Source of the DNA: Nemertoderma westbladi
Taxonomy: Eukaryota > Animalia > Xenacoelomorpha
NCBI GenBank assembly: GCA_032718475.1
Contig: JAUCBJ010008313.1
Location: 124,001 to 188,000 of the forward strand
Direction: 5' to 3'
Length of the DNA: 64,000 nucleotides
The translations under genes and the position numbers were made by a program. Positions 18,961 to 61,173 of this stretch are shown here, one piece after another. The stretch's first letter is position 1, and every line of letters starts with the position of its first letter. Below the pieces are notes generated by a model. It was not told the DNA's origin. It saw only the letters and a program-made list of their open reading frames with translations, and made no database searches.

Positions 18961-18964
18961 TTAA

Positions 18965-28411: not shown

Positions 28412-28443
<32 letters not shown>

Positions 28444-29326: not shown

Positions 29327-32300
29327 ATGGCGGAGAAACTTGTTAGAAAGAGAAAGGCGGATATGGGAGGAAAGGAAATACTAGTAGACTTCACCGAGAG
29401 GCATCCAGAGGAGAAGACGAGGGGATACTACGAGCGGTTGGAGAAGGGTCACAAAGCGCGAGCGCTACAGGACCATTTCAGGGAGGTGCACGAGAGGCGG
29501 CTGGTCGGGACCTATGGGATGCCGTCGCTAGACAATGCGATCTTCGAGCATTTCCACTACGTGGTAAAGGGAGACGAGGCGAAGTTCGGGATACCGAAGT
29601 ATCCGAGGGAACCACCGAAAAAGGACTGGAAGAGGTTCGTAATACGTAAGGGAAAGGCATGGGCAGCCTTGAATAGGCTTTCCAGGATTTGGAAGTCACC
29701 GAGAATTAATCGGAAACTTAAGGTCCGGGTATTTAGAGCAGCAGTAGTTCCAGTACTCCTCTATGGGAGTCCATGCTGGGCTATAAATGCTGAGGACACC
29801 AAATCTCTGGATGGCGCATTCACAAGAATGCTACGCCGGGTTCATTGTGTCTAGTTCAATGCACACATCTCCAACCAGACACTATATAACATTGGAGGTG
29901 TCTCATTGGTTCCCCCAAGCTTGACACTAGAACAAAATCGCCTCCGCTTTGCAGGACATTGCTTTCGCCGTGAGGACCAGCCAGTGCATAATCTTGTACT
30001 TTGGCAGCCTCATGGAGTGAATAAGCATGGTGGACAGCCCATGACTTTCTTGAGACGCATCTTAAAGGACACTGGCCTTGAAGATGCGGATGATCTGGCA
30101 AATGTCATGGGTGATAGGGAGTTATGGCGGTGCAATTTTGTCAAGAAGCCGGCACAGCATTCTTAAAAATGCAGCTGCAATGCAGCATGCCGATCCTAGT
30201 AGTAGGAAGAGGTTTGTAGAGTCCGTCAGCAGGGGAGGATACATGGTCCTAGATGACGAAGGGACCGTGGAAGACAAGGAGGGTTCGAGAAGAGGGTCGG
30301 CGGGGTCGGCCAGAACCATACTTCTGCATTTTGCCGCGCCAAATGGGGACATGTTCCTGTTCAATCTGGGAACGTATGGGAAGAAGAACGGGCCGAAGTT
30401 AAACCGGTTGCCAAGGGTGGTGCCGAATGTAGTAAGAGAGAAGTCGACGATAAAGGTGGGATCGGCGATCCGCGACGATGCGGAGAGGATCATCGGTCCG
30501 GAGACCCCCAACCTCCTGGATACGCAAACGGTCTACATGGCTATGACAGGGCCAGCCGGATTTGGACTAGTAGAGAACACGGGCCATTGTGGAGCGGTGG
30601 CGATGGGCCAGCTAATGGGGCTCGTATGCCACAAGCCAATGGACTGGGGTAAATTCAGGGAGGAGTACGGAGCGGAGTTGGCGAACTCGCTGAAGTGGGG
30701 AGCGAGGCCGGGGAAACAAGAGGTGTATCCATTCCGGAGAGGAGCGATAAAGATATATCAGAAGCGATATATCCTGCAGGAGGATTGGATAATGATAGGT
30801 TTATTAAACCTATTCATGGCCGTGGTTATCGAAAGAGAGCCAACGGCGTTTCTGCTATCGGGATCACCCCTGAACTACAGAAGAGCCTTCAGAGTGGCTT
30901 TTGAGAGTCTGGTAGACCACCCGGGGCTGAAGGGCGAGTCGGTATACTACAACTGCCGATATCTAGTAGACAGGGAGGTGGATACACCATATCAGAGGTG
31001 GGAGAAGCTAGAGGCGGATAGACAAGAGGATAAGTGATTGGAAGAAATGGCTAGATGAGAGAGGAGGGAGGCAGATGAAAGAGAGGCGGAAGCTAGAGGA
31101 GAGGGCTATGGGTTCGAGGCCCAGGCCTTGGATGATTTACAATGGACATCAGGGAGCTCGGGCAAGTCTCTAGGGTGAGAGTTGGGGTGGACGGAAGGAT
31201 CGCCGAAACAGTCGACATCGGGATTACAGGCGACACCCATACCAGCGGGCGCCGAGGGCGATTTCATGAAGAGAAGGCCAGGGGAACTGGAAGGATGGAG
31301 AGTCACGGGCGAGAGCCAAGGTGGGAAGGGACACAGTGGATCTACCGGGATACCGGGTTTGGAGCCACTCCCAGCAGAGGACGAGGATGACGACGAGTTC
31401 GGAGAGATGCCGCCCATCGGGAGAATCGACCACTCGGACACGGACTGGGTTGGCGGGAGATTGGTGACGGCCAGCGGGGCGAGGGCCTTCTGGGATAGAC
31501 ACGGCAAGCGGGCCTGGGTGCATGAGGAGCCAGCAATGGATTTCGCGGGGAGCACCATCAGCTTGGGCGAGCAACCAGGAACGGCACCATAGGTAGTATT
31601 CAGAGAGACGATGCCCAGGCGAGACGAGGAGATAGACATGGACAGGGACGTTAACGTCCAGAAGTTTGCTTACCAGCGACTCCATAGACCGAGGAGATTG
31701 CTTGGGGCGAAGGACGACTTGGGGCGGGACGCATTGGTACTCGGCTGCGATTACTGCGGGAGGCTTACTCACCAGGAAAGGAGCTGCTTGTACCGATTCC
31801 AGAAGGGGACAAGTTGCCTCTACTGCTGCGAGTCGAGTCATAGGATGGGGGCATGTCCACAGTTGCACAACCGATGTTCTAAGTGCAACTTCCGGGGGCA
31901 CTACGGACGCCAGTGTGACTGGATGGACGACGAGGAGAAGTTTAAGATCTTCGAGGAGTTTGCCGATGTCCACGTCATGATGCAGCAGTGGATGAAGGCC
32001 CAGGAATTCCGGTGGGGTTTCTTTAATATTAACCAGGAGGCCCATCTGGAAATCATCAAACGGAGGCTTCCGTTTACTTATCAAGAAGTATCAACGGCAG
32101 CATCGTATGCGGGAGTGATGCATACACAGAGATATTTAGACAGATGGACGCCACAGAACCGGGGAGAGTTCAGAGATTTCCTGGCGGAGCATGTGCCGCG
32201 GGCCATGAAGGTGATCCTATGGGATGATACTAGGGGGAAGCAGCAGGGGCATTCGGAGGGGCCACCTGCGAAGCGATACCGGGAGCTAATAACACCAGCG

Positions 32301-32465
32301 CCCAAGGAGTCGACGACGGGAATCAGTAGGGAAGTAACGGCAAGGATGAGGAACCTTAAGGAGGACAAGAACAAGGGAGCGGCGACGACCAGGAAGCGAC
32401 CGAGACAGGACGATGACAGAGGGAAGGAACTTAGATGGTTCCCAAAGACAGGAGGAGCGAACTAG
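29327..32465 (+). pseudogene. ORF3 of BEL/Pao A: DEDDy 3'-5' exonuclease plus three CCHC knuckles (~853 aa reconstructed)
   Basis: Single frame after RTE removal; MVLDDEG, LLHFA, LPRVV..IKVGSAIRDD, LLDTQ, QKRYILQED; CDYC..H..C, CLYC..H..CP, CSKC..GH..C; four nonsense codons seen. Confidence 0.85.
29642..30204 (+). mobile_element. 5'-truncated RTE-clade LINE (copy 3)
   Basis: Near-identical to the 3' ends of copies 1 and 2; TSD GGAAGAGGTTYGTA (29628-29641, 30205-30218). Confidence 0.95.
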
Positions 32466-32481
32466 AACTTGGAGGGGGAGA

Positions 32482-33480
32482 TGTGGGGATGCCTGGAAGG
32501 CACCACATGCAAAGTAATACGAACTCCTAAGTGCAAATTTAATTAAAAGTGCAATTAGTATGTACGTATGTAATAATCATTAGAATATAATCATATAACC
32601 AATATAATCAAAGTAAGTACTATAGTCATGTAACCTTTTTCCAACTAGCTACTGGGACTGGGGGCCAATCGACTATGACAGGAGGACGGGAGACTAGAAC
32701 GTAGCACTACACACTTGACACTTCTTAAGTGCGATGGCACGGAAGGGGAGGGTGAGTCTCGTCAGGAGTGAATGGGCTAAAGTGAGTAAGAGTTGAGTAT
32801 AGAACGCAGGGGAGATAGCGAGAGGTGGTGTTGAGGCGCGTGGAGAGAATACGGGTGCGATTCAAATGTGGGGGGGGGGGGGAGTAAGAAGCAGAATGAG
32901 GGATGAAGAGGTCCGAGAGTAGATAAGAGTTAGAGTGAAAGTGGAGAGAAGTTAGAGTCAGTTAGAGTGGAGTGGAGATAAAAATTGTGTGAGAGGTGTC
33001 CACAATTGTCTCGAACCGAGACGCCAGATGTCTTGATTCAACATAGGTTGGAGTTGCAACAAGAGGGGGTAGTAATATCATACCCAGAGGGAGCGGCCTG
33101 GAAAGCCGACTCAAAATAAAAGAACTCCACCCCATACCCGATAGTAGATCGGGAGACCGGGAGAGCATCCGCTAGGTAATAAGGCCACAGTACCGTAAGG
33201 GTGATTAGATATATTATCAGTATATTGACATACCAGTTTTAGTTTACTCAGTCACTCAGTGCAGACCGGTGACATTTCGCACCGTCACCGTCACCATCAG
33301 TACACATTATATTATATTATCAGTTATACTACCAATTTATATTCTGTCAACTGTGTTATCATATATTATCCGTTTATTCAATCTATAACAATATCAGAGG
33401 GATAACAACAAACTATCTTTCTCAATTACACGGTGACGCGTAACTTAATAAACCGGTCGGGATCCCCTGATCCCGTCACA
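32482..33480 (+). repeat. 3' LTR of BEL/Pao A (~1 kb)
   Basis: Follows the PPT; TGTGGGG...AATAAA...GATCCCGTCACA, with the same end as the B-type LTRs. Confidence 0.85.
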
Positions 33481-36940: not shown

Positions 36941-36944
36941 GGGC

Positions 36945-38688
36945 TACCCTTTAATTTCGATAATGAACTTTCTAATTCATCGTTTCGTTTATTTTTTGTT
37001 TAAGCAGTAGTAAGGACAGCTTGAAAAGTAGATAATTATATTATATTTTATTTATACTTAAACGTCAAGCTACTAATAGTAAAAAACCGAACCGGTAGGT
37101 ATGTACAACAAGTAAATAATAATCGACTGGAGACCCAGACATGCACGTAATAGTGATCAGCTGACTGCAGACAGGTGATCGGTAGGTTTCGCCCCAATAC
37201 AGCGGGCTTTCTCAGGATGCTCAAGCTAGCAGGACGACAGTAGAGTGAAGTTCCCAAAGGAGGAGAACAGGCAAAGTGTGATGGGGCTGATACATACTAA
37301 CTAACCACTGGGAAGCAGCACCACAAACTTACGCCAATCACGTTTCTGCTTGTTGATAACTGGCTGGCGCGTGCGAATATAGTACATTTCAAGCTTTTGC
37401 AGAATAGGCTGCAATGGGTGCCTAGCAATAACTTTGAAATGTTTAAAAAGCTCGCGCCAGTCAGTCAGCCAACGTGTATTGGGCTCGCCGTGGTGCGTCA
37501 TGATGTGGTTGTACACAGTTTTGCCCTGCTCACTCCCGTCATTGGCTGTACCGTCCTGGTGTTGTCTAACGCTTTCAAACAGGTGTTGGATAGTGTGTCC
37601 AACATATTCCCCCTTACAAGAGGGGCAGGAGAAAAAATAAACGACGTTAGAAACAAGGATATCAGGGACAGGATGTTTTAATGATGGGAGCGACTGGCGC
37701 AGTTTGGAGGTTGTAAAAAACAAACCTAACTGGCCGTGTGCAAGACGTGGGTATGAGACCACGCAACCTTCGAACAAGGAGGTCGGTTGCCCGGCCACGG
37801 TACTCAAACTTACAGATAATGGCCCTGGAACTCTCAGCCGGCATGTTCTCATCAAGGTTAATGACCTCAGAGAGAACCACCGCTGGCACTTCAGTCCCTG
37901 TGTCACTGCCTGTGCGCCCCCTAGCGGCTTGTACCGCAGTGAGCTCATGTAGGACCATCGCATCCGTATATTGGTTATTGTGAAGAATAGACTTCGCTTC
38001 CCCAATAGCAGTATTGAGTTGGGAACCATCCCCACCCTTACTGACGTTAAATATACGATGGAACATTCCACGAACCACACCGAGTTTGTATGACTCAGGG
38101 GGGCACGCAGTAGCATTCAGGACGAGCCCAGTATCTGTAGGCTTGCGGTACCACGCAGTTGAAAGTGCGCGACTCATATGTGTCACAACCATATCGAGAA
38201 AGGACAAGCGACCCTGTTCCTCCAACTCAAGGGTAAACTTGAGATTCGGATGGAGGTCGTTGACCTCCCTCAACTTTTCAGTGGGGTCGTTACTTCCAAC
38301 ACTGAACACGTCATCGACGTACCTCGTACTGAGCTTGGTCCCCACAGTGATCTGCTCGTCAAACCGTGAGAGAAAGACGTTGACGAGTATGGGACCCAAA
38401 GGGGACCCCATAGGGACACCATCTTTCTGACAGACGTAGTTGCCATGGTGATCTAGGAAAACAACATCCTTGGTAGCCAACAGCATCAGACAAATAAATT
38501 GGTCCTTGCTGATTGGCTGGGTGTCAGGATGTTGCTCATACAGTAGATCAGCAGAGAGCTGCACCGCCTCCCTTAGTGGGATGTTAGTGAATAAACTCAC
38601 AACGTCCAGTGCGTAGAGACGGTCCGTGGGTTCTACATCCAGTTCAGCGAGAAGACTGGCAGCAGCCCCAGCACTGTTAGTCGATATC
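36945..38688 (-). mobile_element. Penelope-like element, 3' part (RT plus GIY-YIG endonuclease)
   Basis: LDVVSLFTNIP, GVPMGSPLGP, RYVDD, LSFLD, WYRKPT; NVVYFFSCPSCKGEYVGHT...H...LE..YI..IN; frameshift near 37710; left boundary approximate. Confidence 0.92.
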
Positions 38689-39852
38689 TGTAAAAGCTTT
38701 TGCGGAATTAGCCGGTTATTTTCCCCGCAAAGTACTCTGTAGTTGGTTTAACAGGCATAAAAAGCCGTATCCTTACTGTACTGGTGTTTTAGTGGACATA
38801 AAAAGCCATTTCTTCTGTATGTGTACTTTAGCGGACATAATTAGCAATTCTATGTCGCAATACGCTAAATCCTCTTGAAACAGTGTAGTTACTATGACGA
38901 CAGCTAACAGCTGATCTGTACACGTGTAGCTTTTTCCTTGTTCTCTGGTGTTTCTTTGTTTGGTCAACCAATCAGAGCGATTCTCTTGCTTTTTGTACAG
39001 AAACCTCCGGGAAATCGCGCAATGCATTACGGGTCAATGTTTACCTTTTTTCCTGAGCCCAGAAGACCGGCTTTGGAATCTCTGTGTTTTCAGGCTTTAG
39101 CCCAACATTAGTAGGCTTAATTATAGAACGTATATCTGTTATCTAATCAAACATACCATAACATATCATAACAATTCATACCTTAACATTTTTACTGCTA
39201 TTTACTGTCGGTTATTCATTATATCAGTTGATGGAATATTATTATATTTGGAATATCGATAAATAATTACAAAACCCTCAATCTTCTTGATATACTGAAG
39301 GTAAGAGAGACCGGTTACATATAACGATTGCGACTTACATTAAAGTGGTTTTGAAGTGAATCTAATGCTATTTCATAGGCACTACATGTATCGGTTGTTG
39401 TTCTCTTTATATGTGACTAAAATTAGTGAAGGTCGGCAGATCGGTGTGCAGCATTGTGCAGTAGTGTGTATGATAGTGACTGATAACAAAGCATCTCCTA
39501 AAGAATGCGCTATATACGTGAATCCATAGCCATCCCGTTGTGTCTAGTTTAAGTCATAACTCTGTTTACATATTTAGAGCACCACGTCCTAAAGGAACTG
39601 TTAATATTTCCCGAAAGTGAATAATATTTGTCAGAGATTATATATTACGATCAGTCGAATAATACAGTAGGCCTACACCGCAATAAGGTTAGGCTTCCGA
39701 ATATCCAGTCTCCCGGGTATATCCAGCGGGTGAATGGTCGCGTATAGACTGGCTTTGGCTAATGTAGTGTATCAAATACTCGTCATAGGCTAAAGTCAAT
39801 TTATTATCTAGAAGACATCCAAATTTGGCAGGTTAAACTGCTAAATGTCTGA
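38689..39852 (+). repeat. 5' LTR of BEL/Pao C (lacks the last 11 bp)
   Basis: About 98% identical by eye to 61443-62615; similarity stops after GTCTGA. Confidence 0.92.
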
Positions 39853-40146
39853 TCAATAACAGATATATACGTACAATCAGAAAATATAGTTGTCTATTGT
39901 TCTGGTAAGAACAATAACAGATATTGATTTCAGATTGCAGTGTAGGCAATAAAATGCAGTTTAATATTGTTCTGGTAAGAACAATAACAGATATTGCTTC
40001 TTTATTGCAACGTAGGCAATAAAGCTGAAGTACCGGTCAACCGGTACCCAGTAGGCCTGACTACCTAACCACCTGGACTGGTACTTACAGCAGTACAGGT
40101 ACAGCAGTATTATTCGATTGTGATATTGTATACCGGTAGGCCTTAA

Positions 40147-41716
40147 CCCTATTAGTACCGGGCTATAAAATGTTGTACAAATACCGGGAGGGGGTCATAT
40201 TGACCCCCCCCCCCCCCCCTCTAAAATCTACAAATATTTACGAAAACGTCTGATTTTTTGTTTGTACGTAGGTATCCGACCGGATCGGTATCTGGATCCG
40301 ACCGAAAAAAAAAATTTTCGAAAAAATGTACTGGGGTGGTTATATTGCAGCACCAAAATTACAAGTAGTGCACAATTTTCACAAAATTTGAAAGTTACAT
40401 TTTCGGCTATTTATTTTTCAATACAGGTTTTCTGGGGTGCAAAATACATTTGGAAAATATTTAAAAATGATATGATCACTATAAATGGTTGTTTAGTCCT
40501 CTCTGCGTAGGAAAAAAATGAAAAAATCAAGTAACCAGCACTTTTCAGTTAGAACACAAAATTTTTAATTCACTTATACGATGCTATAAATTCACATTTT
40601 CAGGTTTTCGAGGGCGCTGATTCTAATGGAATACATTTCTAATATGCCAGATCATTGCTACTTGTATTTTTCGGCGTAATTTTCAAATTTTGGTGCTAGC
40701 ACCAAATTTCGTACTCATCACCAAAAAGTACAAGTTTGCGATGTCCAGTGCTGTTTTTATTGATTCCATCGGATTCAGGACCCTCATAAACCCGTATAAC
40801 GCAAGAAACAAGGTGATACTATCTACTTATCAATTTGCATATTTTCCAAAATTTGGTGCTGGCACAACAATTTTCACCCACCGGCGAAAAATACAAGTTT
40901 GAGAACTCTTATGAAATTTTTACTGATTTCATTGAATTCAGAACCATCACAAACCCGTATAACGCAAGAAACAAGGTGACACAATCAATTGATATATTTG
41001 ATGGTTTTCAAAATTTGGTGCTAGCATCACATTTTGCACCCACATCCGAAAAATACAAGTTTGAGATGTCTAGTTCGATAATTATATTTTCCATTGAATT
41101 CAGAACAGCCATAAACCTCTTAAAACGCAAGAAATAAATTGTCACAAGCAATTTTGTATATTGAATGGATTTTCAAAATTTCGTGCTGGCACCAAAATTT
41201 GCACACAGCACCGAAAAATACAAGTTTGATACGCTTGGTGCAACTCGTATATATTTCATCGAATCCAGAACCCCAAAAAACCCCAATTGCGTAAAAAACA
41301 AGTTTCAAACAATCAATTTACAAAATTGACTTATTTCAAAATTTGGTGCTGGCACCAAAATTTGGCACCCATCGAAAAAAACAAGTTTGAAATTTCTAAA
41401 TCAATTTATTTGAATTCCATCCAATTTCTAACACCAAAAAACCGGTGTAAATCAAAAATAGAGATGTTACAATTCATATTTAATGAAATGTAATTTTCAA
41501 AAAACGTCTCAAAAAAAGTGCCAAAAGTAGGGTTAAAAAATGGTGCTATAACTCGAAAAGTACCCAATATTTTTGAAAACGGTTTTCACTACCATGAAGA
41601 CAATAGATTTTTAGGAAAAGTCATAAAATTTCAGATTCCCAACTGCGTTTGTTTCAGAATTATAATAAAAAAACCACGGGATGGGTCATATTGACCCCCC
41701 CCCGGGTTTAATAGGG
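40147..41716. mobile_element. Non-autonomous piggyBac-like element (copy 2, inverted relative to copy 1)
   Basis: TTAA|CCCTATTA...TAATAGGG|TTAA; reverse complement of 17404-18960. Confidence 0.92.
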
Positions 41717-41837
41717 TTAATATTTAATCAGGGACGGCCGCCCTGGTTTTTTATTGAGATTTTACTTATTTCTGTCAGTTTTATTTATTTGTAGGTTAAT
41801 ATTGAGCAGAAGACGTGTAAGCCTGCTCAGATTGTAC

Positions 41838-47361: not shown

Positions 47362-50300
47362 ATGTCTGATACAAAGCAAAACCTGTCAGACAGTCTCTTA
47401 GATACAACCATCTGTGACCCAGATAGGAGTGTGGAACGTGTGAGACCGAAGTTCAACTCACCTCCTACTGTAAGAAAGATCATCCCTCCAGTAGTAGTAT
47501 TAGATCCTAGGCTGGTCCAACACCGTAGGTCTATCATAGGCACTCGAGCTCAGGTCAAGCGGGACCAAGAAGCAGCGGAACAGCAACAACCCGCGAGCCG
47601 AGAACTTATTTCTCAGCGGACCGACAGCTCCAGTAGTGCGGATACTGTAGAGCTGACACCCGAGTGCGGAGCAAAGATGGCAGATGCGGTTTATTCGGAT
47701 CCCCTTCTCATCCTTCCTGCAGCCGTACTCACTAGGGTATTGATTGCGGTGGAGGAACACCAGATTGATTGGGCGAGAAGTAAGCGATCGACCAAGGATA
47801 GTTATGCGGGATATACAAGGGAAGAACTGAAGTCTATTGTCGAGTCGCAATGGAACTTCCCCGGACCCGGACTCCCATTTGACTTATCGGAAGCTGCCTG
47901 GGAAGACATACACAGGATGGGAGTGACAAAAGAAACCAGCGATCCAGCTGTGTGGAAGAGGTCAGCAGCAGGATACGTACAGGTATTCTTCAGCTCTATG
48001 GAGCGATTAAAGGAACAACTGTTTCGACAACCCCAAGGACCTCAAGAGCAGGGAGAGCTGCTTTATCAAGTTAGAGAAAGAATTCTACGAATCAGGCTAA
48101 TCTTATCGGCCTTTGAGGAGGCTTCTAAAAGAAGACAAGACACGTCGTTGCAAGTTGCCATAAAGACTTGGTTTCAGCGGGTGAGTCTCCAAGTTCAAGG
48201 AACTGCCCAGTGGAAATCTCAGCTGGCTGAGCGCTCAACCCACGGAGAATCAACAGACGCTACATTTTCCCAAGTGGAAAGTGAAGCGACGGCAGAGAAA
48301 CCGCATAAGAGGGATGCTATTGACATCTATCTGTCGGACTATCAACGTTTTGTAGGAGATGAAGAGTTGAGGAGAAGGCTAGATGGACTTAGTCCTAACA
48401 GTGAAGGAGCCAAGCTTGTGTTGGACGCAATCGATGCGGATATGATAGCTGCGAACCAAGCTAAATTTGATGAAAGCAGCCGCATCGCTAAGGTCCAAGA
48501 AGAACAAGTAAAGAAAAAACGTATAGAAGACAGAAAGATAGCAGCAGCGGCAATGGCAGTGGCAGAAGCGGAAAGAAAGGCGGCAGAGGCAGCGGCAGAG
48601 GCGGCAGCGGCAGAGGCAAAAGCGGCAGCGGCAGAGGCGGCAGCGGCAGAGGCAAAAGCGGCAGCGGCAGAAGCGGAAAGAAAGATAGCAGTGGCGGAAG
48701 CAGAACGAAGAGCATCTGAAGAGACCGCCCAACTAGAATTGGAAAATCTGCAAGAGAAGCAAGACTACATAGATAAACAGAGAACAGCTACTCAGTGGCA
48801 GCTGATGAATCGATCCACCCCCAAGAGACAGGGTTTTACATCATCGGATGAAGGTGATACAACCGACCCTGAAGGCGGAGGAAATCGATCTCGTCTCAGC
48901 AGACGCAGAAGAATGTCCCACCGTCAGAAATTGCCTGATTTGCCCCCTGCTGTTCGAAAGCAACTAGCTAGAACAGACTTAGGTAGTACAGAACCCACAG
49001 ACCAAATTATTAAAATAGAAAGACTCCCTACTATAGTAGATGAGCCTGAAATAATTAGGCCTGTTCTCGAAACCACCCCTTCAGTAATAGAGACACCTGT
49101 ACTCCCAGAACCTACCTCTAAATTCCCTTTGCATAGCACTAAGCTACCTGTGCCCAACAGAACAGCCCATGAGACAGTTCCTGTTCTGGACTCCGGGCAA
49201 AATATCAATGATTTGTCGCCCGTTGTTCCCCATCCACTCGCTACAACGTTGGCGGCTCCCGCTTCGGCGGTCGAGTGGGTGGATGAGAGACGGCGGGGGA
49301 TGGATCTCCTGCTCGGGCAGATGCAGGAGACTGTTAAGCAGTTCAAGGGCACTGTAAGGGAAAGTAGGTTAGAGTTGCAAGAAGTGCAGCAAAGTATCGC
49401 GTTAGAACGCGATAAATTAGTAAACACACAAAAGGGTATACCACCACCCCCTGTAACAATGTGTCAACCTGTTAGGTCTGAAGTATTTCATGCGCAAGGT
49501 GTGGAGCCTACACGCATCTATACTGCTAGCGAAGTGGAAACTCCTATAGTAAACCCTATTAAGGGTAATTATAAACCTGTTGACAATGATATCCCATATA
49601 GACTTGATAATAATCCGAGAAATTTATAAACCGATAACTCGATATTAAATAACACGATGGCCCAAGAAAGTTTTACGCGTCAAATGGCTAGAACCGAAGC
49701 CCGTCAAGCGGTAAAGGTGGGAGAGATTGTCAAGTTCAATGGAGATGAGATGAAATGGTTACCTTTTAATGAATATTACAAAGATAACATACAGAACTCT
49801 GTGCTATCTAATGGAGAGAAACTTAGATTCCTCATCGAGTGCTTGGAAGGATCTCCCAAGTTAATGGCGTTAAAGTTTATTGGACATCCAGATGGATTAA
49901 GACAAGTTTGGGATACACTAAACATCAGGTATGGTAATAGGACTAACATAGCTAGGTATTTATATGCGAAATTAATGACGCCCCGAAAGTTTCTTAGCAG
50001 CGGGATTATAGAGTTTTCCGACGAGATTCAGGAGATCTGTAGACAACTAGATAGGTTAGGTAAGTCTCATGAATACCAGAATTCTATGGTTGTAGGAGCC
50101 TTAGCATCTACTTTGCCCAAGGGTGGAGTAGGTACACGCTGGGACAAGAAAGTGTTATATATGATGGAACAACAACAAAGAGATCCTACCATGGCTGATC
50201 TCATGTCATTTTTAGATGGAGAGGTAAAATTACAGCTCCTAAAGCAGTCCAGAGAGAAGACACCAGAAAATAAGGTAAGTGAGAAACCCGTTTCTAGGAG

Positions 50301-50793
50301 AAAGGTAATACCAGTGTGTTATACAGACGACGGCGGAAGCCAGGCTTCTCAAGAGGAAGACAGCGGGAAAGACACTGAAAGATCTTACTATGACAACAAA
50401 ACGCCTAAAGAACAGGTAAGTAAATTCAAGTCTCGAACCAATGACAGGAGAGAACAGGTAAGAAAAACTCCTTCTACGTCTCGTAAGAGAATTCAGTTAA
50501 GAAAGCCCGAAGAAAGAACGAGTGTGCACAATGTTACTCAAAATAAGGTAAGTAACATTAAACCGAAATGTGCGATATGTGACGGGACCCACCGTTTGAA
50601 TGTGTGCGACGAATTCCTAAAGAAATCATTAATGGATAGACGGGAAGTCATGTGGGATAAGCGGTTGTGTTATAATTGCCTCAGACAAGGACACCAACGG
50701 CGAACCTGTTACTCCGACGCAAGGTGTGCAAAGTGCGGTGCGAAACATCATATCTTGTTGCACACTGAATTCGAGCGAAATTCAGTGATGTGA
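47362..50793 (+). pseudogene. gag: BEL/Pao C gag (long N-terminus with Ala/Glu repeat; DUF1759 core; three knuckles)
   Basis: KFNGD...KLRFLIECLEG...RYG; CAICDGTH..C, CYNCLRQGH..C, CAKCGAKHHILLH; split at 49629/49657. Confidence 0.92.
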
Positions 50794-53700
50794 ACGACAC
50801 TGACCAAAGTTCTGAGATGGAAGGATTCTATACGGACGAATTCTCCGACGAAGACGAATCCTGTTACATGATAAATACCGCAGTGTATCGAGCACTTACG
50901 TATGAAAAGGACACCGACAGCGAGCTCACCCTAACTACTTCTGACCGACAACCATCTTGGAAAGCACCAACTTCCAATGTAGGAATCCGAGAATTTCCAG
51001 TAGTGCAGTTAAGGGTCCACGGACCTAAAAGGAGTTATATAGTGAACGCCCTCCTTGACTCCGGTAGCACAGGAACATTCATCGACAAAGAACTAGCCGA
51101 AGACATCTTTGCTGGACAACCCAAGTTCCAAACTAAGCTAAACATGTCAGGAATTATGCAGGTTTGGAAATCTACCGTAATAGCGGATTATTATGTAGGC
51201 GCGTTGTCCACCCCCCAGGATGAACTAGGAGAACACAGCATAAGGTCAGTAAAAATGGTAGTGATAAAGAACTTCGCTACCAGTGGAACCAAGTGGAACC
51301 TTATAACTGGGATGAGGATGATTTCACCCAGCAGCTTGAAATACCTAGATTCAACACCGAATACCCTGGAGTGCAAATACTCATCGGTCAAAATGCGCAT
51401 GAAGCGCTCGAGACATTGGAGAAACGGCCTGCTCAACCGCAACCACTACAAGCTTATGCGGGAAGAACTAGAGTGGGTTGGTACTTTACTGGCCCTTCCC
51501 GTAGAACTCTCATGGAAAGATTACCGAAAGATCAGGTATATCAAGTAAGAGAATGGGAAGTGTAGAGCAGTGAGTTAGACGATCCAACTGAGGGAACTCC
51601 ATACTCCTCAGATAACGACGATATCCACAAACTCTTCGACGAGGAGAATACAATTGATCTCCTTACGGAAAACGAGACTTGGCAAAACCAAGTGAACCTA
51701 TGTCAGCTCATTCGTCCATCAGAACGAGTTGACTATAACGACGAACTGAATGACTTCATTGAACGTTATAATGCAAAAACTCGGGATGAACACGCCGTAC
51801 GATTCTTTACTCAAGAGGCTGTAGAGCCCAATTCCTACGATAAGGCCCTATCGGTAGAAGAAGAAAGAGCCAAGCAGATCCAAGAGACAACTACACGTTT
51901 TCTTAAAGATCAAGGTAGATATGAAATCGGTCTACCTTTCCGAAAGCGAGAACCAAAGTTCATAAACAACAGACCCTTGGCGGAGAAAAGAATTGCTCAA
52001 CTACATCGACGCCTTACGGCAAATTCTTCAGCTAAAGAAATGTATCAAATGCAGTTGAAGAAATTTATTAACAAAGGATATGCGGAGCGAGTACCGGAAG
52101 AAACACCTATAACTGAGAGAACGTATTATTTAACACATCATTACTTTCCCAAACCCGGTAAACCTCATGAGGTACGAGTAGTGTTTGACTGCTCCGCCCT
52201 TTACATGGGTCAATCCCTTAATTCCGAGTTGTTACCAGGACCCAACTTACTCCAATCCTTGTTGGGAATACTCTTAAGATTACGACAATATTCAATCGCT
52301 TTCGCCTCCGATATAGAAGGTATGTTCTTACAAGTCAAGGCGCTGGATAGGGATCGAGATAGCCTACGATTTCTGTGGTGGCCTGAAGGAGACCTCAACC
52401 AGAAACTGGTGGAATATTGGATGACCATCCAGACTTTTGGGATAATCTCGAGCCCTTTAAACGCCTGTTCAGTGGTGCGCACCTCTGCGGATGACAACCG
52501 GGAAGCCTTCTCTAAAGAGGTGATCGACAACATCAAACGGGATATATACATGGACGACAATCTAAAGTCCCTTCCATCAGTCGAAGAAGCCATTGATGTC
52601 GCTAAAGGAACGGTAGAGTGCTTAAAAAGAGGTGGATTTCGATTAACTAAATTCACCAGCAACTCCCGTGAGTTTCTGGAGTCGATCCCGGTAGAAGATC
52701 GAGGAGCGAAAGACCTAGATCTAATCAAAGATGATCTTCCAGAAACCAAGACACTTGGTTTGAAATGGGACACAGAGAGAGATATCCTGTTTTTCCAGCT
52801 AAAACAGCGAGATAATCCAGTTCGGACTAAACGGATTTGTTTAAGTATCCTGAGCACTTATTTCGATCCATTGGGATTTATTAGCCCAGTTATATTGATT
52901 GCTCGGTGTTTAGTACAACAAATGTGGCTTGAAAACCACTCATGGGACGATCCACTTAAGGGAGAATTATTAAAGAAGTGGATGAAATGGGAAGATTCTC
53001 TACCAGCCATAGAGAACTTTATAATTTCCCGTTCATATTTTGGTCATGTTCTCCCTACGTATTCCTATCAACTCCATGTGTTTGGAGACGCCAGCGATAT
53101 GGGAATAGGTATAGTAGCCTACCTGAGAGTGGAAACTCCGGATGGAATCAAAGTCGCCTTGGTTACCTCTAAGGCATTGATAAACAACAAGTTGAAAGTT
53201 CCTAAAAGCCTAGTTCTAGTTCTAGTTCTAGTTCTAGTTCCTAGTTCTTAAAAGCGGCTCTATACGCTACAGCCATCGGCCGGAATGTAACAGAACAGAT
53301 CGATTATCCATTGGAGAAAACTGTCTATTGGACCGATGCTTTACTCGTGTTGGAGTATATAACCAATGAAGTCTGTCAGTTCAGCGTCTTCGTTACCAAC
53401 AGAGTAGCCATTATACTTAGTCGCACGAAGATGGATCAATGGAGACATTGCCCCGGAACGATCAATCCAGCAGACATCGCCTCCAGGGGAGCAACTCCAC
53501 AAGAACTGGTAGATACTCCAGACTGGTTAGGTGGACCCGACTTCCTCTACAAAGAAGAAGAAGAATGGCCTCCTCATCTTACTACAGCTGAGATTAGACA
53601 GGCCAAGGGAGCGGAGAAAGTCAAACCTAAAACTCGGGCGAGTAAATCGAAGTTATTTAAACCTATGGTAGATCTGTCTGTACTACACACTTCCGGAGAC

Positions 53701-55467
53701 GACGCTTTGGATCCGAAACCTACATCCATAAATAAGTCTGTTGTGGAAATCCGTGAGAAGGATTGGAAATCTGGAATACCAGACGTCTCGCAAGGACTCT
53801 CACCTCTCCTGCAGAGAGCGATACATCACTACAGTTCCTGGAATCGGCTCTGTAAGGCCGTTACATATTTAAAACGATGTTTTCATCATCACTACTCCGG
53901 GACGAAGACCAATAGTGATACCGCTCCGCTGACATCGGTGCAGGTCCATGTTGTTAAAGATCTTCCTAAATATAAGATATCCGACAGGTTTCTGAAGGAG
54001 AAGATCAGTTATCAGGAGCATGAAGAAACCAATAAGCAGATGCTGAGACTCCTGCAATGCTATGAGGATTCCGATAAGTATTTCCTGTTGTTGAGAAATC
54101 CACAGATGCGCTTAAGGGATCGTTTCTCTAGCACAATGATAGATGGGTTGATACGTGTTGGAGGAAGATTAACGAATGCTCCATTATCCTTTGACACTAA
54201 GTTTCCCATACTCATTAGAAATCTTGAGATACAAGTCAAGATGATTGTAGATGTTCACAGCAAACTTTATCATGCTGGTAGAGAACGAGTTCTTAGCGAA
54301 ATTCGAACTCGCTATTATTTTTATAAACCCCGTAGAGCTCTGAACCAAGTTCTTAGGAACTGCATACCCTGTAGGAAAGCATTCAGTAGGCCTTTAACAC
54401 AGCGAGAGGCAGAATTACCTAGGGAACGAGTAAGCTTCTATGAACCACCCTTTACTAATACCGGTGTAGATTTATTTGGCCCTATTGAAGTATATCGTGC
54501 TAGGACTATAGTCAAGAGATGGTGTGTCATCTTTGTTTGTATGACTTGTAGAGCTATCCATCTCGATATGGTGAACGATTTATCTACCAACAGCTTCCTA
54601 TTAAGCTTACGACGACAGATCGCTCGCTTTGGAACTAGTAACACGATGAGATCTGATAAGGGAACAAACTTCATTGGTGCCAACAATGAAATCAAAGCTT
54701 ACGTCAAAGATTGGAACCAAAGACAGGTGGACGATCAGCTAAGGGTAACAGCGTCTAGCTGGACCTTCAACGCCGCCGACGCCCCTTGGTGGGGAGGAAG
54801 TTGGGAGAGATTAATCAGGAGCGTGAAGACCGCATTTCACTTTATAGTGCCGTGCCGCGCGTATCTCACCGACGAACTTTTGCGGACGTTAATGGAGGAA
54901 ATCGCCGCCTATCTCAACGAGAGACCGCTTATGCCAGTCTCATCGAGTCCCGATTCCCTGGAAGCGCTAACACCCGCGCACTTCCTACTGAAGAAACCTG
55001 TAGCCATGCTCCCACAATCGGAAATCACAGACGGAGACGAATACTGCCGGCAAACTTGGCAACTCATGCAGTTGTTATCCCGTCGTTTCGCTGACCATTT
55101 CGAAAAACACTATCTGCCCACGCTACAACTTCGAACGAAGTGGTTTGCGCAGCAAGAAAACGTCAGCGCTGGAGACATGGTCCTTATTGTGGATTCAGAT
55201 CTTCCACGTAAGCGGTGGCAGACAGGTCGTATCATCGAGACTCACATCTCGGATGACGGTTTGGTGCGATCGGTAGAACTCGTCGTCATGCGACGTAACT
55301 TCAAGAAACCGGGAATTGTCTTCGAGACACAGCAGCTCAATCGCCCAGTTGGTCGTTTATGTTTACTGGAAAGAGACAGAGAACTCTCCGGAAACTATGG
55401 AAGACAAGATACTCTTCCCACGACCACCTCCCTAATCCAACAAACATCTAGGGACTCCCCAGCTTAG
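50790..55467 (+). pseudogene. pol: BEL/Pao C pol (protease, RT, RNase H, integrase)
   Basis: LLDSGS, RVVFDCS, GPNL, DIEGMF, YMDD, FDPLG, FGDAS, WTD, NPAD, GVDLFGP, SDKGTNF, GGSWERLI; several frameshifts. Confidence 0.95.
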
Positions 55468-57101
55468 TAGCGTATGGAGTGGGTGTGTGACCATATTATT
55501 TTATATTCTTATTATTTTATATTTATGTATGTATTATTATGTAATTTTATTATAATCGTTTTCTTTAATTTTATTTAGTAGAATGTTATTTTAGCGATTA
55601 TTTAGTAGATTAGTGCAATATATATTCGCGTTTATTACTTAATTACTTATATATTATATATTTAGTGCGACGGCGAGAAATAATTCTTTTTCTCTTTCCT
55701 TACTGTCCGTATTATATTACAAATAGTAACTACAGTAAGATGAAATCTCCTACTTATTAAAGTACAATAAAGCTCCTACTATATTCAAGTATTATTGGTA
55801 AGTAGAGTATTAGGAATGCAAAATTCAGATCCTCGTGTCTCGGCTAAACCAAGCTCTGGGTAGACCTTGGAAACGACTTGCCTCTTCTCACTGACATTGC
55901 TTCGTGCGATATTGCTCTCATACCGTATCTTAAATAATACATATAGTAGCGTGATGTCCCTTTAACAGTAGCGTACAACGCAAAAATAAATCTGTTAAAC
56001 CCTTTGACCATCTGTAATTCTAGTCGATTAAGATATCGCGGCACCCACCGATATACTTGAAAGACAAAATTCTAGAATCAGTGGTTAACGTCCCCAGACA
56101 AGTTCTGGAATAAACTGGTGCCCATCCTAAATGTTAATTATTAATATTTATAAAATCTGTCAAATTTCAGATCCTTTAAAATTCTAGTCGATTAAGATAT
56201 CGTAGCACTTACCGATACTCTTAAAAATGACAAATTTCCTAGAATCAAGGATCCCAGTCCCCAGATATGTTCTGGAATAAAATTGTGTCTATTTAATATT
56301 AAATAATAAAATTTACGGGAATAAATTTAAATTCATGTTTTAATGAATTTAATAGATTGTCATTTTTATACAATTTATAACATTCCCAAAATTCCTTTAA
56401 TTAATAGATCATGGGAGCGGAGATTCACTCTATTAAGTGTATTAGTGTGCGAGAATCTCCAATATATAGTCAATAGCCGATAAAATTCATAAAGTCATGT
56501 ATAGAGAGGATATTGACCATTAAAGAATTACTATTAAATAGCATCCCAGATCTGTATGCATGAGAATTACCCTAATTCTACCGCTAGCTTTCCATAATGT
56601 CACCATGGCAACAACCACGCTAGAATTAGAAGTAAGTTAAAAGAACAATAGAAAGCTTGCCCCATTGAATAGCATAGGGAATAAATAGCGCACTGCTAGT
56701 ATCCAAGGATACATAATAATAAAGTGACATTCTGGAAGGCACTTGACTAACGGACAAATGGCCCGAATGTGTACAATTTGTGACAGTTGTGTGGAATTTG
56801 TGCGTTTATAGGTGAATGTTACTGCTAAAGTGTGTTTACAGTAGCGTGTCGCAATTGTGAAAGTAGCCCTAACTCTCCAGAAAGAACCTGAAGTACATCT
56901 AAGCCTTTGGGACGGACAGTGGAGTGACTTGTGCCGGTTATCGTTGTCGTTGTGTAGCTACATCGTTGGCGAAAGCACAGCGATGACGGTACATCGGCGC
57001 TGAGGATCTTGCACTGTCCGGGGGCAAAGAGGGGTAGGCAGCGACGCCCGCTAGCCTAAAATATAAACTCATTATAATATTGATAAACTCATATAGCAGA
57101 T

Positions 57102-60100
57102 ATGACTGAGTTGATAGAAGATGATCTTGGTATCAGGGAGCGATATACTCTACCTTTACAAGCGTTTGTCGATAGCTTGATACGCGGCGACGCTGGTCCA
57201 ACTACTACGGAGGATGATGGTCGTTATATCGAACCGCCAATGTCCCAGGAGCAACTTACGCGTGAATTGGATTATAGAAAGTTCACCGCTCGCTATACGC
57301 ATCGTAATGGTACGTATATGGACTTCTTAACTACTGGCCATCCTATCGATTTACACGATACGGACGATGTAGACACCGAAAGGGAAATGGTTTTATTTAA
57401 ATATCATACCCAGCGGAGTCGGAACGATAAACCGAGAATAGAACACGAGAATTCTATTCGAAACCGACTCGAAAGAGAAGACGTTGAAGAGCCGGATAAA
57501 CGCAGCGACTTCAACGATTATCTGGAATTTCTGAGAGAAACATATCTCAATATTGCCAGTCAACAAAATCTAGAAACTCGATATCCTCAAGGTATACATC
57601 ATGATCCTATGATAGAACTCAAACGACTCTATTTCACTATGATGTATCTTACCGCCGATCGACCGCTACCTGTCGTCCCAGATAGCTTCGAACAGATGGA
57701 GGAATATTGTAAAACTGGAGAACGATCACCCGCGTTTCCCCTGCAGGACGTGCGTCTTTGGTATTACTGCGACGAATGCCCTAGACCCAATCAGCAAACG
57801 GAAAGACATAAACATCCGCGGAGACGTTGCGCTAAACACAGTTTTACACGATATACTTATGGGAGTTTCGAGCGAAACCTGTTCGACGTATCACCTACGG
57901 TCGCTCGGCTCAAACGATCCTTGAATAAACCAATGATCAGAGTTCCGGAATACTCGGTCAGACCTCCTCATTCCTCAGTTAGACCTCAGACTCTTGATCC
58001 TAATAGTATCACGGATCCTCCCGAACTGTACTCACTGTTCAAAGATCTAGTGTTACCCAAACAGTTGATCGGTGGCACTCCGGTAGTGGGCTCACTAGAT
58101 ATTCGCCAACCCTACCTAGCCGGATTAGGACGCGGTCATCTAATATCGCCGTTTAACCCGTACAACCGTCCCGGCTTCACCCCGATACAACCCGTTACGG
58201 AAGTCGAAGAGAGCGTCGTACGAAACGGGTTAGACGCTATTCGGCAGAAAATCGGAAAGGGAACTTACGATTGTTTGGAGAAACGTAAATTGCAGCAACA
58301 AGTCCAAGCGGTGAAAGAATTAGCTTTACCCCAGTTCGATAGAGAAATACAGAATCTCGAGGAGGACATCGAATGTGGACGAACCTACTCTTTACAAGAG
58401 TTCCTAGATGAGCGTTTACAACAACAAGCGGAGGAAAATCAGCTCGAGGAGAGACATATAGAACTAGATGAGAGAGAAGAAGCAGCTTTAGCCCAGCCAG
58501 AAGCTCAAATTCTTATAACCGATCTCTATTCTAAAACCATTATCCATCCTTCGATGGTTCCTCATTTCGGAGACAAACTCTTCGCCACAGCACAGCCTCA
58601 ACCGGTTGATATCAACCTAAGATCTCGAGATCTTATCGCTGACGCTCCCATGTTGCAACGTCCGCCCATCGAAGCCGCTCGTGTCGATGGTATACTCGTT
58701 GAACCTCCGGACAATAGAGCGGATCTTGTCCATCGTATGGTACACGATGTTAACATACACGCTAGACCTTTACCGAACTCGTTTTATGGGATCAAAGATC
58801 ACCCTTATTACGTCAATCTAACGCAATATTACATGGTAAAACTGGAAGATCCTACACATAGTCTGAGGTTTCTACCACTAATAAATCCTCTCAATCTTGT
58901 CGAACTCAAACAACTGCAGAAACATCTGGATCAGTTAGTTAAAGTAAACTCATTTCGAAAACCATATAATGTTTCCAGAATAGAGAAAGAAACAATACCT
59001 CCGTATAATCTTGATGGATTCATCAAAACTCGATTAGTACACTGGAATCTCGATGTGTTATTCGAGGAGGAAAGGATACAACGATATGGAGATGTAGAAA
59101 CATATACTACACAATATTTAAAGTATAGAGATCTACCTAATGCTAGCGAATGCGCTACCTTGTGGCATCCAGTGGGAATGACTCTCGAAAACGCCACTAA
59201 AGAGTGGAATGAGACTCTTAACGTTATCGAGATGTATGGAGTTGTCACTTACGATAACGAAGGTAGCGTTCCGGTTGGAGAACTGGGAACTACGCGAATG
59301 ATACACATACGAGGACTCACTGGTTTTACCCACGTATTTACTCGAGCGTGTTCCGATGTGATTGATTATTCTTTTGAGACTCTTACTGAGACACAAAAGA
59401 AACTCTGACATGGACAATTCGAACTCGCGCAGCGTTATGTCACCGACACCGAGAGCAAACCGGCCATGGGTATCGATGGATCGATGTTACCCCAGCCCGT
59501 GCTCGAAATGTTGTTTAACGAAAGAATCCTTAAAATCGGCTCAGCTGTTTATGGAGATCTACAAAACGACTTTCGGAACATGGAGAACATTCCATACCCT
59601 TTCGTTGATACTCAGCTGATTGCTCCCTGGGCAGAAGGCCGAGGTTTCTTCCGCACTATGTATGCCAATACACCCAGCAGCATTACTAAAGTACAACGAA
59701 CCTCCATCGGACATCTTGCCTTTCAAGAATACGGATGGAATTTCAAGGTTGGAAATCCTATCAATTACCAACAAGTATATGGAGATCATTATTCTCGTTT
59801 ATACTTTGATGGACCATTGACCGCACCTGGCGCCGTGTATAGCTTTATGAGTGTTCCACTTTACTTTACTTTGTCCCTCCTTAGCTATATACACGATCTT
59901 TGAAAAGGCCGCACTTTCCGGTTGGCTAGCCGATGTGTGCAGTCGTACCATACGCGCCCATCCCTTAATACTTGGAACCAAACTCGCCAAGCTAGATGAA
60001 CACAATAAATTCATCCGCTTCGAATGTTTCAGGCACTTTCTGACTCCGTTCCGTAACGTTGATAGTCAGTTCAAGGACCGCGCTCTGACCAAACTCAGCC

Positions 60101-61173
60101 TAAGAGACTCAGCTGCGGAGAAGCTAAACAGCGCGGGATTTGCCCTTTTCCAGGACGTTTGTATACAGAACTTACATTCATCTGTTATACAAAGACCCCG
60201 AATACCCACGGGTTATTCTGTCGTGGAAGTTCAGACAGTGGGTCCGCTTGCGGAGACAGCCGCATCTACCTCAGCTATGCAATTGGAAGACGAACCAATA
60301 TGCTTAGAATCTGAGGCGATTCAGCCTACAGCGCCCCGGAGCAGCGATAACGACTATGTCTTAGAGTGGTATCAAGGTCCACAATGTCTCACCGCATACG
60401 ATTATCGACACGCCAACTATGTTTCTCAAAAACGTTGTCGATTATGCGCATCGAGAGACCATTTCACCCCTATGGACTCAGACGTACCCTGCTCCTATTT
60501 CCACGAACAACCGATGATAGAGATCTATTGTGCGTATTGCAGACTTAATAACTCGCACATTTTTGCAGTCTGCCCCCAATTTATGACTCAATGCCACCAC
60601 TGTCAACTTAAAGGACATGCCAGTTTTAATTGCCCTTTTAATCGCGATTAAGAAAGCGTAGATGAGATGATTACCCTGTGCTACATCCGAGCTTGGGAAG
60701 CGAACGCGGATTTACATTGTGAGTCCCGCCATCGCTATTACCCTGGACGCGCTTACGAGGGAGTTTACGCGTTCCATCCTTTTCTATTCGCGTCTGTTGA
60801 ACAAAAAACACGCACACCGAGTTACGAACTAATGAAGCGTGTTGGTGAGTGTATTTCCACCAAATTTGTTCGAAAATATCTCAGGAACGTCAATCCTAAC
60901 GATATTACTTCATACCATTTGATCAATTTCATCCGTCAAGACCCTGAGTATGGAGATTTATTTATCAACTCGCACCCTGAGTTACAGGAAGTATCTCGAT
61001 GGCCCTACGAATATCGAGCCCGAGAACGCGAGCTGGAAAGAACCATTAAACCGAGGAAGTTTCTCACCACTCACGGTCCACCTACCGCTATTGTCCAGAC
61101 GACCCGTCAAGGACCCGTAGGAGCTGCTGTCCTAAGACGCGCCCTAAAGGCTGTTAGACCTCGCTCCACTTAA
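57102..61173 (+). pseudogene. ORF3 of BEL/Pao C: ~700-aa unknown N-terminus, DEDDy exonuclease, three CCHC knuckles (~1350 aa)
   Basis: VTYDNEG, LPQPVLEMLFNERILKIGSAVYGD, FVDTQ, SYIHD; CRLC..H..C, CAYC..H..CP, CHHC..GH..C; in-frame stops at 59408 and 60651, one frameshift near 59897. Confidence 0.85.

Follow-up and report, generated by a model that had tools for sequence, protein, structure and literature searches.

Two BEL/Pao elements and their third open reading frame

The DNA analysed here (the window) is a 64,000-nt stretch of Nemertoderma westbladi contig JAUCBJ010008313.1, and all coordinates are positions within it. Two LTR retrotransposons, elements A and C, lie on its plus strand, and both were assigned to BEL/Pao because Peptidase_A17 and DUF5641 were found by Pfam in each. 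Element C has a complete gag-PR-RT-RH-IN order between its LTRs. Its 5' LTR (38689-39852, the portion common to the 3' LTR) is followed by the gag region (47329-50793), pol in pieces that encode a protease, the RT/RNase H and an integrase (50769-55467), a third open reading frame (ORF3), a PPT (61435-61442) and the 3' LTR (61443-62604, the limit of the match to the 5' LTR). The LTR pair is 98.1% identical, with 20 substitutions in 1164 nt. DUF1759 (Pfam) and Cys-His motifs were located in 49630-50793, and the upstream ORF at 47329-49629, which is in the same frame, probably represents the N-terminal part of Gag.

Only the 3' half of element A is present, its gag, the rest of its 5' half and its 5' LTR being missing from the window. 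A 5'-truncated pol remnant with in-frame stops (23936-26587; Peptidase_A17, Integrase_H2C2, DUF5641) covers the end of RT/RNase H and the integrase. It is followed by a spacer of degenerate tandem repeats (26768-28911) that is split by a LINE insertion (RT ORF at 27140-28381), by ORF3, and by the PPT (32471-32481) and the start of the 3' LTR (TG at 32482; feature 32471-32520). A second pol fragment of family A occupies 62710-64000 and shares 84% identity with 23986-24410 across 439 nt.

In both elements ORF3 is a separate sense-strand frame with the integrase on one side and the PPT and the TG start of the LTR on the other, as had been noted previously. The intervals 29327-32465 and 57102-61173, given in the preliminary description as elements A and C themselves, turned out to be the coordinates of the ORF3s. 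The two families are strongly diverged: identity between A and C is 31% in pol (191/620) and 36% in RT (84/232), and self-BLASTN returned no DNA match between the LTRs or between the ORF3s. The view that the LTRs are dissimilar and that pol is related at the protein level was thus borne out.

ORF3 of element A starts with an ATG and a 105-aa piece without recognised domain (29327-29641). It is interrupted by a LINE 3' fragment (29642-30204; 96% identity with the LINE at 27852-28420) flanked by a 14-bp target duplication (29628-29641 and 30205-30218, 13 of 14 positions identical). There follow the predicted exonuclease domain (30207-30860), a linker in the same frame (31035-31592), a zinc knuckle region (31746-31916) and a tail with an E-x-x-A-D-x-H motif (31917-32465). 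The window copy is broken by the LINE fragment and by four in-frame stops, all in the linker. In element C, an N-terminal region of about 700 aa without recognised domain (57102-59189) has no counterpart in A; it precedes the predicted exonuclease domain (59190-59960), the knuckles (60436-60633) and the tail (60634-61173). This copy is likewise interrupted: its frame breaks near 59860, and one stop lies in the exonuclease and another in the tail.

In LTR retrotransposons, whatever occupies the env slot is mostly interpreted as an envelope gene or goes unannotated. An envelope identity was rejected for ORF3, which has no strong hydrophobic segment (19-residue maxima of 1.59, 1.38 and 1.33) and no match to an env family. 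Expression as a frameshift fusion to pol was also rejected because the spacers are long (1.6 kb in C, 2.7 kb in A) and because all three frames are closed in the 1.6-kb C spacer and in the 407 nt tested 5' of the A ATG.

Predicted exonuclease domain and zinc knuckles

The domain preceding the knuckles very probably adopts a DEDDy-type fold that retains D, E, D and Y but has Glu at the position of the fourth Asp. In A, the Exo I D-x-E (30252-30260) corresponds to D16 and E18, which, together with Q185 and Y188, are invariant over 25 aligned rows, A included. The D-N-E of C (59253-59261) is aligned with Exo I of A in a two-row alignment but is placed elsewhere by the multiple alignment. The Exo II Asp is present in both families (30477-30479 in A, 59556-59558 in C). 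At Exo III the canonical Y-x3-D was not found; a Y-x3-E is clear in A (30768-30782), and a putative one may be read in C across the frame break (59890-59904). This exchange of Asp for Glu had not been pointed out in the preliminary description. Judged by these residues, the domain would be a DEDDy-derived variant with the motif DEDE rather than a canonical member.

Several profile-level results point to this assignment. In a language-model search of the ESM Atlas with the A exonuclease, clusters bearing PF01612 accounted for 25 of 30 matches (score 0.93); in the two of these clusters that were listed, PF01612 was present in 41% and 51% of the members, with 171 and 163 shared features. Giant-virus exonucleases head the Atlas and BFVD lists, which was not read as pointing to a donor. 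The RNase D profile TIGR01388 matched the C exonuclease weakly (E 0.013). A home-made profile of 29 DEDDy sequences gave 8.4 bits for A and 15.7 bits for C, values reached by none of 1000 shuffles, and ranked the two ORF3 segments first and second among 283 segments of the window, the margin of A being thin (E 0.028 versus 0.11 for the next segment). When A and C were combined as a pair, the match to the DEDDy profile had a probability of 82.7, compared to a maximum of 1.45 among 200 column shuffles.

The relationship is, however, a very distant one. Pfam and PHROGs contained no DEDDy match for the ORF3 exonuclease, and the hit to DNA_pol_A_exo1 or WRN_exo that had been anticipated was not obtained at E≤1. 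A previous profile, which was redundant and built from 20 rows of mostly WRN-like type, gave no significant score for ORF3, and a PDB sequence search with the A exonuclease returned one irrelevant match (E 0.95). With reference profiles composed of bacterial and viral rows only, WRN-like and RNase D scores were 6.1 versus 17.7 bits for C and 4.5 versus 1.5 bits for A. An unguided single-sequence fold reached a pLDDT of 37, and two structure searches with that model were uninformative. A model guided by an alignment reached a pLDDT of 73.8, with a best structural match of Z 14.4, rmsd 2.6 and 160 residues aligned; since the guiding alignment was itself one of DEDDy sequences, this match is circular. 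The Atlas feature match bears on the RNase H-like DnaQ fold independently of the guided model.

The knuckle region is significantly similar between A and C (E 1e-6; z 10.6, reached in 0 of 3000 shuffles). The triple CCHC cluster proposed for both was found in A, with three canonical CX2CX4HX4C motifs; in C, two CCHC motifs (CX2CX5HX4C and CX2CX4HX4C) are preceded by a degenerate first one (CX2CX4HX9C). The ORF3 knuckles scored 87 against each other, compared to 47-48 against the knuckles of C Gag. In the ESM Atlas the best score for the knuckle ORF of A was 0.88, with recognition below threshold. All the motifs quoted earlier for A and C, among them LLDTQ/FVDTQ, VYPF/VYSF, the CCHC strings and FEEFADVH/WEANADLH, were found in place. 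The proposed fusion of a DEDDy domain to CCHC knuckles is supported by the Atlas, the RNase D and DEDDy profiles and the knuckle motifs; that both lie in one chain is suggested by reading through the broken copies.

It is very improbable that the ORF3s of A and C do not derive from one ancestral gene, or that the domain is not of DEDDy type, so that independent captures or chance motifs merely share generic knuckles. Such an origin would fit the lack of significant pairwise similarity between the exonucleases (BLASTP E 0.74; shuffle p 0.06-0.69), where the expected A-versus-C alignment failed while it held for the knuckles. It would also fit the borderline tail, which without the knuckles gave p 0.02-0.43 and a 72-residue gap-free register that is not significant alone, the very different N-terminal regions, and the lack of homologues in four large searches. 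Three length-limited protein searches gave no match; all ten matches among 1.84 billion representative proteins were TPR-repeat artefacts. No ORF3 match was found by tblastn against plasmids or in viral contigs, and the single locus in metagenome contigs was rejected, as it lies in a bacterial gene and its match of 22 residues is attributable to chance. However, the A and C domains each independently top the DEDDy profile, and D-x-E-G, K-x-G-S-A, D-T-Q, V-Y-x-F, the knuckle spacing and E-x-x-A-D-x-H occur in the same order in both. In C, moreover, selection excludes a junk reading (see below). As ORF3 was missed by Pfam and by searches over billions of proteins, similar genes have probably been overlooked.

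Recurrence of ORF3 and purifying selection in family C

The ORF3 frames are far more open than expected by chance: four stops were counted in 752 codons of A (34.6 expected), and one each in 933 and 440 codons of C (51.7 and 20.7 expected). For the A linker taken alone, openness was not significant (four stops versus 7.2 expected, p 0.14). In agreement with the idea that ORF3 is a regular part of both families, it is multi-copy and covered throughout in other contigs. The A sequence was covered in every bin in four of four runs (three samples), and the C sequence in 30 of 30 bins. The ratio of summed contig depth between A ORF3 and pol was 0.68-0.88 in X1-X3, that is, of the same order, depth not being a copy number. 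Nearly all other copies of family C lack the two stops seen in its window copy, and the first of the four A linker stops is absent from most other contigs.

Variants of C ORF3 were classified in 37 rows, taken from the 40 rows listed out of 360. Among those common to several copies, 22 of 27 were synonymous versus 34% under neutrality (p 6e-7, pN/pS ~0.12), which indicates purifying selection on C ORF3. Only one of ten copy-private variants was synonymous (shared versus private, Fisher p 1e-4). The earlier suggestion of a selected accessory gene thus holds for family C. Within the same listed rows, a single one of the 27 shared variants falls in the exonuclease domain, so that the signal of selection comes mostly from the linker, the knuckles and the tail. 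In rotifers, the sequenced env and GDSL ORF3s showed mostly neutral intragenomic variation (PMC5408684), and direct evidence of purifying selection on an ORF3 of the present kind was not obtained in that study.

The location of this evidence, mostly outside the exonuclease, would suit an RNA-binding adaptor with weak or no catalytic activity, comparable to EXD1 or Egalitarian, which would deliver element RNA to germ cells or tie up silencing factors without cutting. The Glu at the fourth catalytic position points in the same direction, and two DEDD derivatives that have lost activity, EXD1 and Maelstrom, still bind RNA (PMC5408684). The guided, and hence circular, model matched EXD1 (Z 12.1, rmsd 3.5, 165 aligned) and Egalitarian (Z 12.5, rmsd 3.5, 177 aligned) about as well as active enzymes. 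Pseudo-nucleases usually lose their catalytic residues, whereas both families here have retained the D-x-E, the Exo II Asp, the Tyr and, in fourth place, an acidic residue, although the A and C domains cannot be aligned pairwise. We consider the adaptor distinctly unlikely. As the acidic residues persist where little else aligns, ORF3 is probably an active, metal-dependent nuclease.

Candidate functions and related systems

We tentatively propose, as a possible rather than a probable role, that ORF3 acts as an accessory DEDDy-type 3'-5' exoribonuclease with knuckles that trims host silencing RNAs and thereby shields the element. The observed basis is a separate sense ORF between integrase and PPT in many copies of both families, kept by purifying selection in C. 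The protein might be translated from a separate message, which would probably be spliced. Its knuckles would grip single-stranded RNA and feed the 3' end to the active site, by analogy with trypanosome RNase D, and the substrate, the most conjectural step, could be piRNA, siRNA or their precursors. The narrower proposal, that an old BEL/Pao lineage encodes an enzymatic suppressor of piRNA silencing whose knuckle-fed DEDE exonuclease destroys or mis-trims the targeting small RNAs, is rather doubtful. If it were true, it would help to explain the abundance of both families in the host, and a retrotransposon-encoded nuclease would target germline defence. In rotifers no clear link was seen between ORF3 and copy number (Rodriguez et al., PMC5408684).

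The best model for cooperation between exonuclease and knuckles may be Trypanosoma brucei RNase D (TbRND, PDB 7C42), in which a DEDD exonuclease is followed by tandem CCHC fingers. In the available part of the report (PMC7797062) this arrangement is called very unusual, RNA binding and cleavage are much stronger with the CCHC domain, and the D230A exchange leaves only trace activity, a point of caution in view of the Glu at Exo III of ORF3. TbRND matched the guided, circular model with Z 13.6, rmsd 3.0 and 179 residues aligned. As described there, it is a cellular enzyme of the mitochondrion that has four fingers, a linker of 28 residues and a complete DEDD motif; ORF3, by contrast, is mobile and combines three knuckles with a linker some 180-300 residues long. 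Similarity between the ORF3 knuckles and the TbRND fingers was not significant (E 0.8).

The same fold and residue evidence would also suit an active nuclease that processes nucleic acids of the element itself inside the particle, trimming the tRNA primer, short 3' tails of element RNA or, ahead of integration, cDNA 3' ends. Nucleocapsid is brought to genomic RNA by CCHC knuckles, and those of ORF3 could recruit the protein in a similar way. For the rotifer ORF3s, processing of element RNA 3' ends was the function proposed first (PMC5408684). According to the accessible parts of the respective reports, TbRND trims U-rich 3' ends via its knuckles (PMC7797062) and the DEDDy domain of Dada DNA transposons was proposed to process 3' ends (PMC3706591). 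However, BEL/Pao elements are usually gag-pol elements of 4.2-10 kb, few of which have a third gene (as far as described in the available text of PMC3118150), so that no core step seems to require ORF3; further, the ORF3 knuckles are nearer to each other than to those of C Gag. Maturation of the element's own nucleic acids thus appears unlikely, and silencing RNAs are retained as the preferred substrate.

Proofreading fits least of the three functions first proposed (silencing suppressor, primer or cDNA 3'-end trimmer, proofreader), as the gene is separate from pol and its knuckles are of RNA-binding type. A subunit acting in trans to remove mismatched bases during reverse transcription could draw on the DEDDy domains used by family A polymerases and on the polymerase exonucleases among the fold matches of the guided model. 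Yet no polymerase-linking domain was seen in ORF3, the knuckles point to single-stranded RNA, and the best matches of that model are stand-alone nucleases, which makes proofreading most improbable.

A DEDDy ORF3 in rotifer LTR elements had been correctly named as precedent. In the bdelloid Juno and Vesta elements, the env slot 3' of pol is occupied by a gene for a DEDDy-type exonuclease, without transmembrane segment and with one catalytic Asp replaced by Glu; it is shared with Terminons (PMC5408684). The motif there is DEED instead of DEDE, the carriers belong to LTR lineages other than BEL/Pao, and no CCHC knuckles are described in the ORF3s, all five 'knuckle' passages of the paper concerning gag or pol. 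We found no literature report of a DEDDy ORF3 in BEL/Pao, to which the present elements extend such enzymatic cargo, with a fused, predicted RNA-binding module added.

Env-bearing BEL/Pao elements (Drosophila roo and mosquito elements) have a third gene in the same slot, but in the parts of the sources available it is a membrane glycoprotein, chuvirus-like in mosquito elements (PMC13524379, PMC3118150). Dada DNA transposons also encode a DEDDy exonuclease with a C-terminal CCHC in the same protein; in the accessible portion of the report this domain is inserted in a DDE transposase and retains all of DEDD, and DNA ends are its proposed substrate (PMC3706591).

Mut-7/Nibbler, EXD1, WRN, EXD2 and Egalitarian share the predicted fold family of ORF3 by reference profile and guided model, and roles within this group in small-RNA pathways suggest a functional analogy. 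To our knowledge none of the five has such a knuckle cluster. The profile scores did not show a closer affinity of ORF3 to these proteins than to RNase D.

Two divergent BEL/Pao families in a transposon nest

Transposons of several kinds are nested in the window: BEL/Pao pieces, LINEs, one Penelope-like reverse transcriptase (RT) and one Polinton-like block. BEL/Pao elements have been described as metazoan (PMC3118150), and their presence here points to an animal host. Element C has LTRs (5' from 38689; 3' at 61443-62604) which are 98.1% identical over 1164 nt and differ by 13 transitions and 7 transversions. Its internal domains are gag (DUF1759), protease, RT/RNase H (Peptidase_A17) and integrase (DUF5641), followed by a 1.6-kb spacer without an open frame in any frame, the additional sense frame ORF3 (57102-61173) and the PPT. 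Only the 3' half of element A lies in the window, with pol from 23936, a repeat-rich spacer containing a LINE, ORF3 (29327-32465), the PPT and an LTR start at 32482; a further A pol fragment is located at 62710. No DNA similarity was found between A and C, and protein identity was 31% in pol and 36% in RT. Given their Pao-type domains, they represent two divergent BEL/Pao families, as proposed in the preliminary description.

Predicted domains of ORF3

The DEDDy-type exonuclease claimed for ORF3 was hardly visible to standard tools: the expected Pfam match was not obtained at E≤1, pairwise alignment of the A and C exonucleases was not significant, and large protein database searches yielded no homologue. 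Nevertheless, four lines of evidence concur: (i) in the ESM Atlas, A grouped with PF01612-bearing clusters (25 of 30 matches, score 0.93; 4-10 of 100 shuffles attain 0.9); (ii) C matched only two NCBIfam models, both for RNase D and both at residues 798-843 (E 0.013 and 0.093); (iii) a DEDDy profile built from 29 non-redundant domains of bacteria and viruses, out of 49 fetched, scored A with 8.4 and C with 15.7 bits, values reached by none of 1000 shuffles, and placed the two ORF3 segments at ranks one and two of 283 segments from the window (E 6e-5 and 0.028; 0.11 for the one after), while the A-C pair, aligned unguided, matched it with a probability of 82.7 (0.34 when reversed; maximum over 200 column shuffles, 1.45); (iv) across an alignment of 25 rows, D16, E18, Q185 and Y188 of A occupy invariant columns, D91 and W164 nearly invariant ones, and E192 the fourth-Asp column. 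Folding of A on this alignment reached a pLDDT of 73.8, with matches to DEDDy folds at up to Z 14.4, which indicates compatibility only because the input alignment imposes the fold. Judged from sequence, assignment to the DEDDy type appears fairly secure. Profile scores did not single out one DEDDy subfamily: C was matched better by an RNase D profile than by a WRN-like one (17.7 versus 6.1 bits), and A slightly better by the WRN-like one (4.5 versus 1.5 bits).

C-terminal of the exonuclease, the triple CCHC array described for both elements holds for A (three CX2CX4HX4C knuckles) but not for C, where two are accompanied by a degenerate one. The knuckle regions of A and C aligned with a z of 10.6, and their score against each other was 87 compared to 47-48 for either against the C Gag knuckles. 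Further downstream both share the motif E-x-x-A-D-x-H, and the tails keep a 72-residue gap-free register which is not significant. That the two ORF3s are non-homologous, as the pairwise exonuclease comparison might suggest, is very unlikely. An env identity was rejected since neither ORF3 contains a strong hydrophobic segment.

About 700 open codons ahead of the C exonuclease (57102-59189) match no known family and lack a counterpart in the 105-residue N-terminus of A; they include a Cys/His cluster near residues 223-247. Upstream of both start codons (29250-29326 and 57030-57101), AG dinucleotides and a branch-point-like sequence were seen by eye; these AGs may serve as acceptor sites in the splicing of a subgenomic message.

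ORF3 in other copies and its possible role

The reading frames are genuine, though broken in the window copies. ORF3 of A is interrupted by a LINE fragment flanked by a 14-bp target duplication and has four in-frame stops in 752 codons (34.6 expected); that of C has one stop in 933 codons (51.7 expected), another in 440 codons (20.7 expected) and one frame break. Other copies were examined through contigs from four of six public DNA runs (three samples). In all four, contigs span every bin across the A and C stretches, in line with the claim that ORF3 recurs beyond the window. The ratio of ORF3 to pol depth for A was 0.68-0.88 in three public runs (X1-X3), these being summed depths rather than copy numbers, from runs picked by matching this same stretch. 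In every one of the four runs, both stops of the C window copy differ from >99% of the depth. Few contigs cross the frame break (main row: 2, 6, 7 and 1), and these depart from the window copy in length at that point; most contigs are too short for computing a share of copies. The first stop of A, alone among its stops in the 40 of 1670 variants listed, does not occur in 14, 20 and 17 contigs, which make up 93-100% of depth, and the A linker by itself was not significantly open (p 0.14). For C there is thus good support for exonuclease, linker and knuckles forming one protein, and we infer the same for A.

The proposed selection on ORF3 was demonstrated for C, where it is purifying. Forty of 360 variants were listed over 59150-61200, of which 37 were classified and three set aside (two stops, one at the frame break). 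Variants segregating among copies were synonymous in 22 of 27 cases, where neutrality predicts 34% for transitions (p 6e-7), with a pN/pS of about 0.12. Differences private to the window copy were synonymous in only 1 of 10 cases (Fisher p 1e-4), the pattern expected of a copy decaying since its insertion. The exonuclease domain holds only one of the 27 shared variants among those listed; for A, the two clearly shared variants listed are both third-position. ORF3 is a real, selected accessory gene.

The closest characterised architecture is Trypanosoma brucei RNase D, an exonuclease whose four CCHC fingers hold the RNA upstream of its 3' end and strongly stimulate cleavage (PMC7797062). On this model, the most probable identity of ORF3 is a 3'-5' exoribonuclease whose knuckles would feed it the RNA 3' end; host silencing RNAs would be the substrate, which is a guess. 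Because a third gene is unusual in BEL/Pao elements, a role in host conflict is likelier than a core replication step. Since, in addition, related folds work in small-RNA pathways (PMC5408684), action on host silencing RNAs is the reading we tentatively favour. The usual lack of a third gene likewise makes processing of the element's own nucleic-acid ends doubtful; a non-cutting adaptor is somewhat less probable still, and proofreading highly improbable.

For Juno and Vesta of rotifers, and for Terminons, DEDDy ORF3s with a DEED motif have been reported (PMC5408684; restated in PMC6431247 and PMC6338049), which bears out the rotifer precedent named in the preliminary description; Dada transposases also contain a DEDDy domain (PMC3706591). 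In the parts of PMC3118150 and PMC13524379 covered, env is the sole third BEL/Pao gene mentioned, and 'exonuclease' does not occur in their main text (supplements, which may hold relevant elements, aside). No BEL/Pao exonuclease ORF3 was found in the literature covered (most subscription papers and Repbase aside).

Other features of the window

The minus strand carries a third gag of BEL/Pao type at 303-4049 (DUF1759, E 9.5e-9), the 3' half of which lies beyond the window. One young LINE is present three times (10156-11132, 27140-28423, 29642-30204; 96-99% identical, TAG-repeat ends), two copies being inserted inside element A. The C 5' LTR starts within the frame of a Penelope-like RT (RVT_1; 37301-38747, minus strand), which is followed by a possible GIY-YIG piece recognised by eye. 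The stretch between the 5' LTR match and gag of C (39853-47328) is unusually long; it contains tandem duplications of 70 and 290 bp as well as a 1023-codon ORF of an L2/CR1-like LINE (43230-46301), and no primer-binding site was recognised. A 1.6-kb element with internal 163-bp repeats occurs twice in opposite orientation (17400-18966 and 40141-41720; 96% identical), one copy just downstream of the C 5' LTR. The degraded Polinton/Maverick-like block (4818-22692) contains a RING-finger ORF (4818-5222), a TBP-like ORF (13565-14155; E 3.6e-5) and minus-strand ORFs (14615-17454) which, without a Pfam match at E 0.01, resemble by eye fragments of a protein-primed DNA polymerase B.
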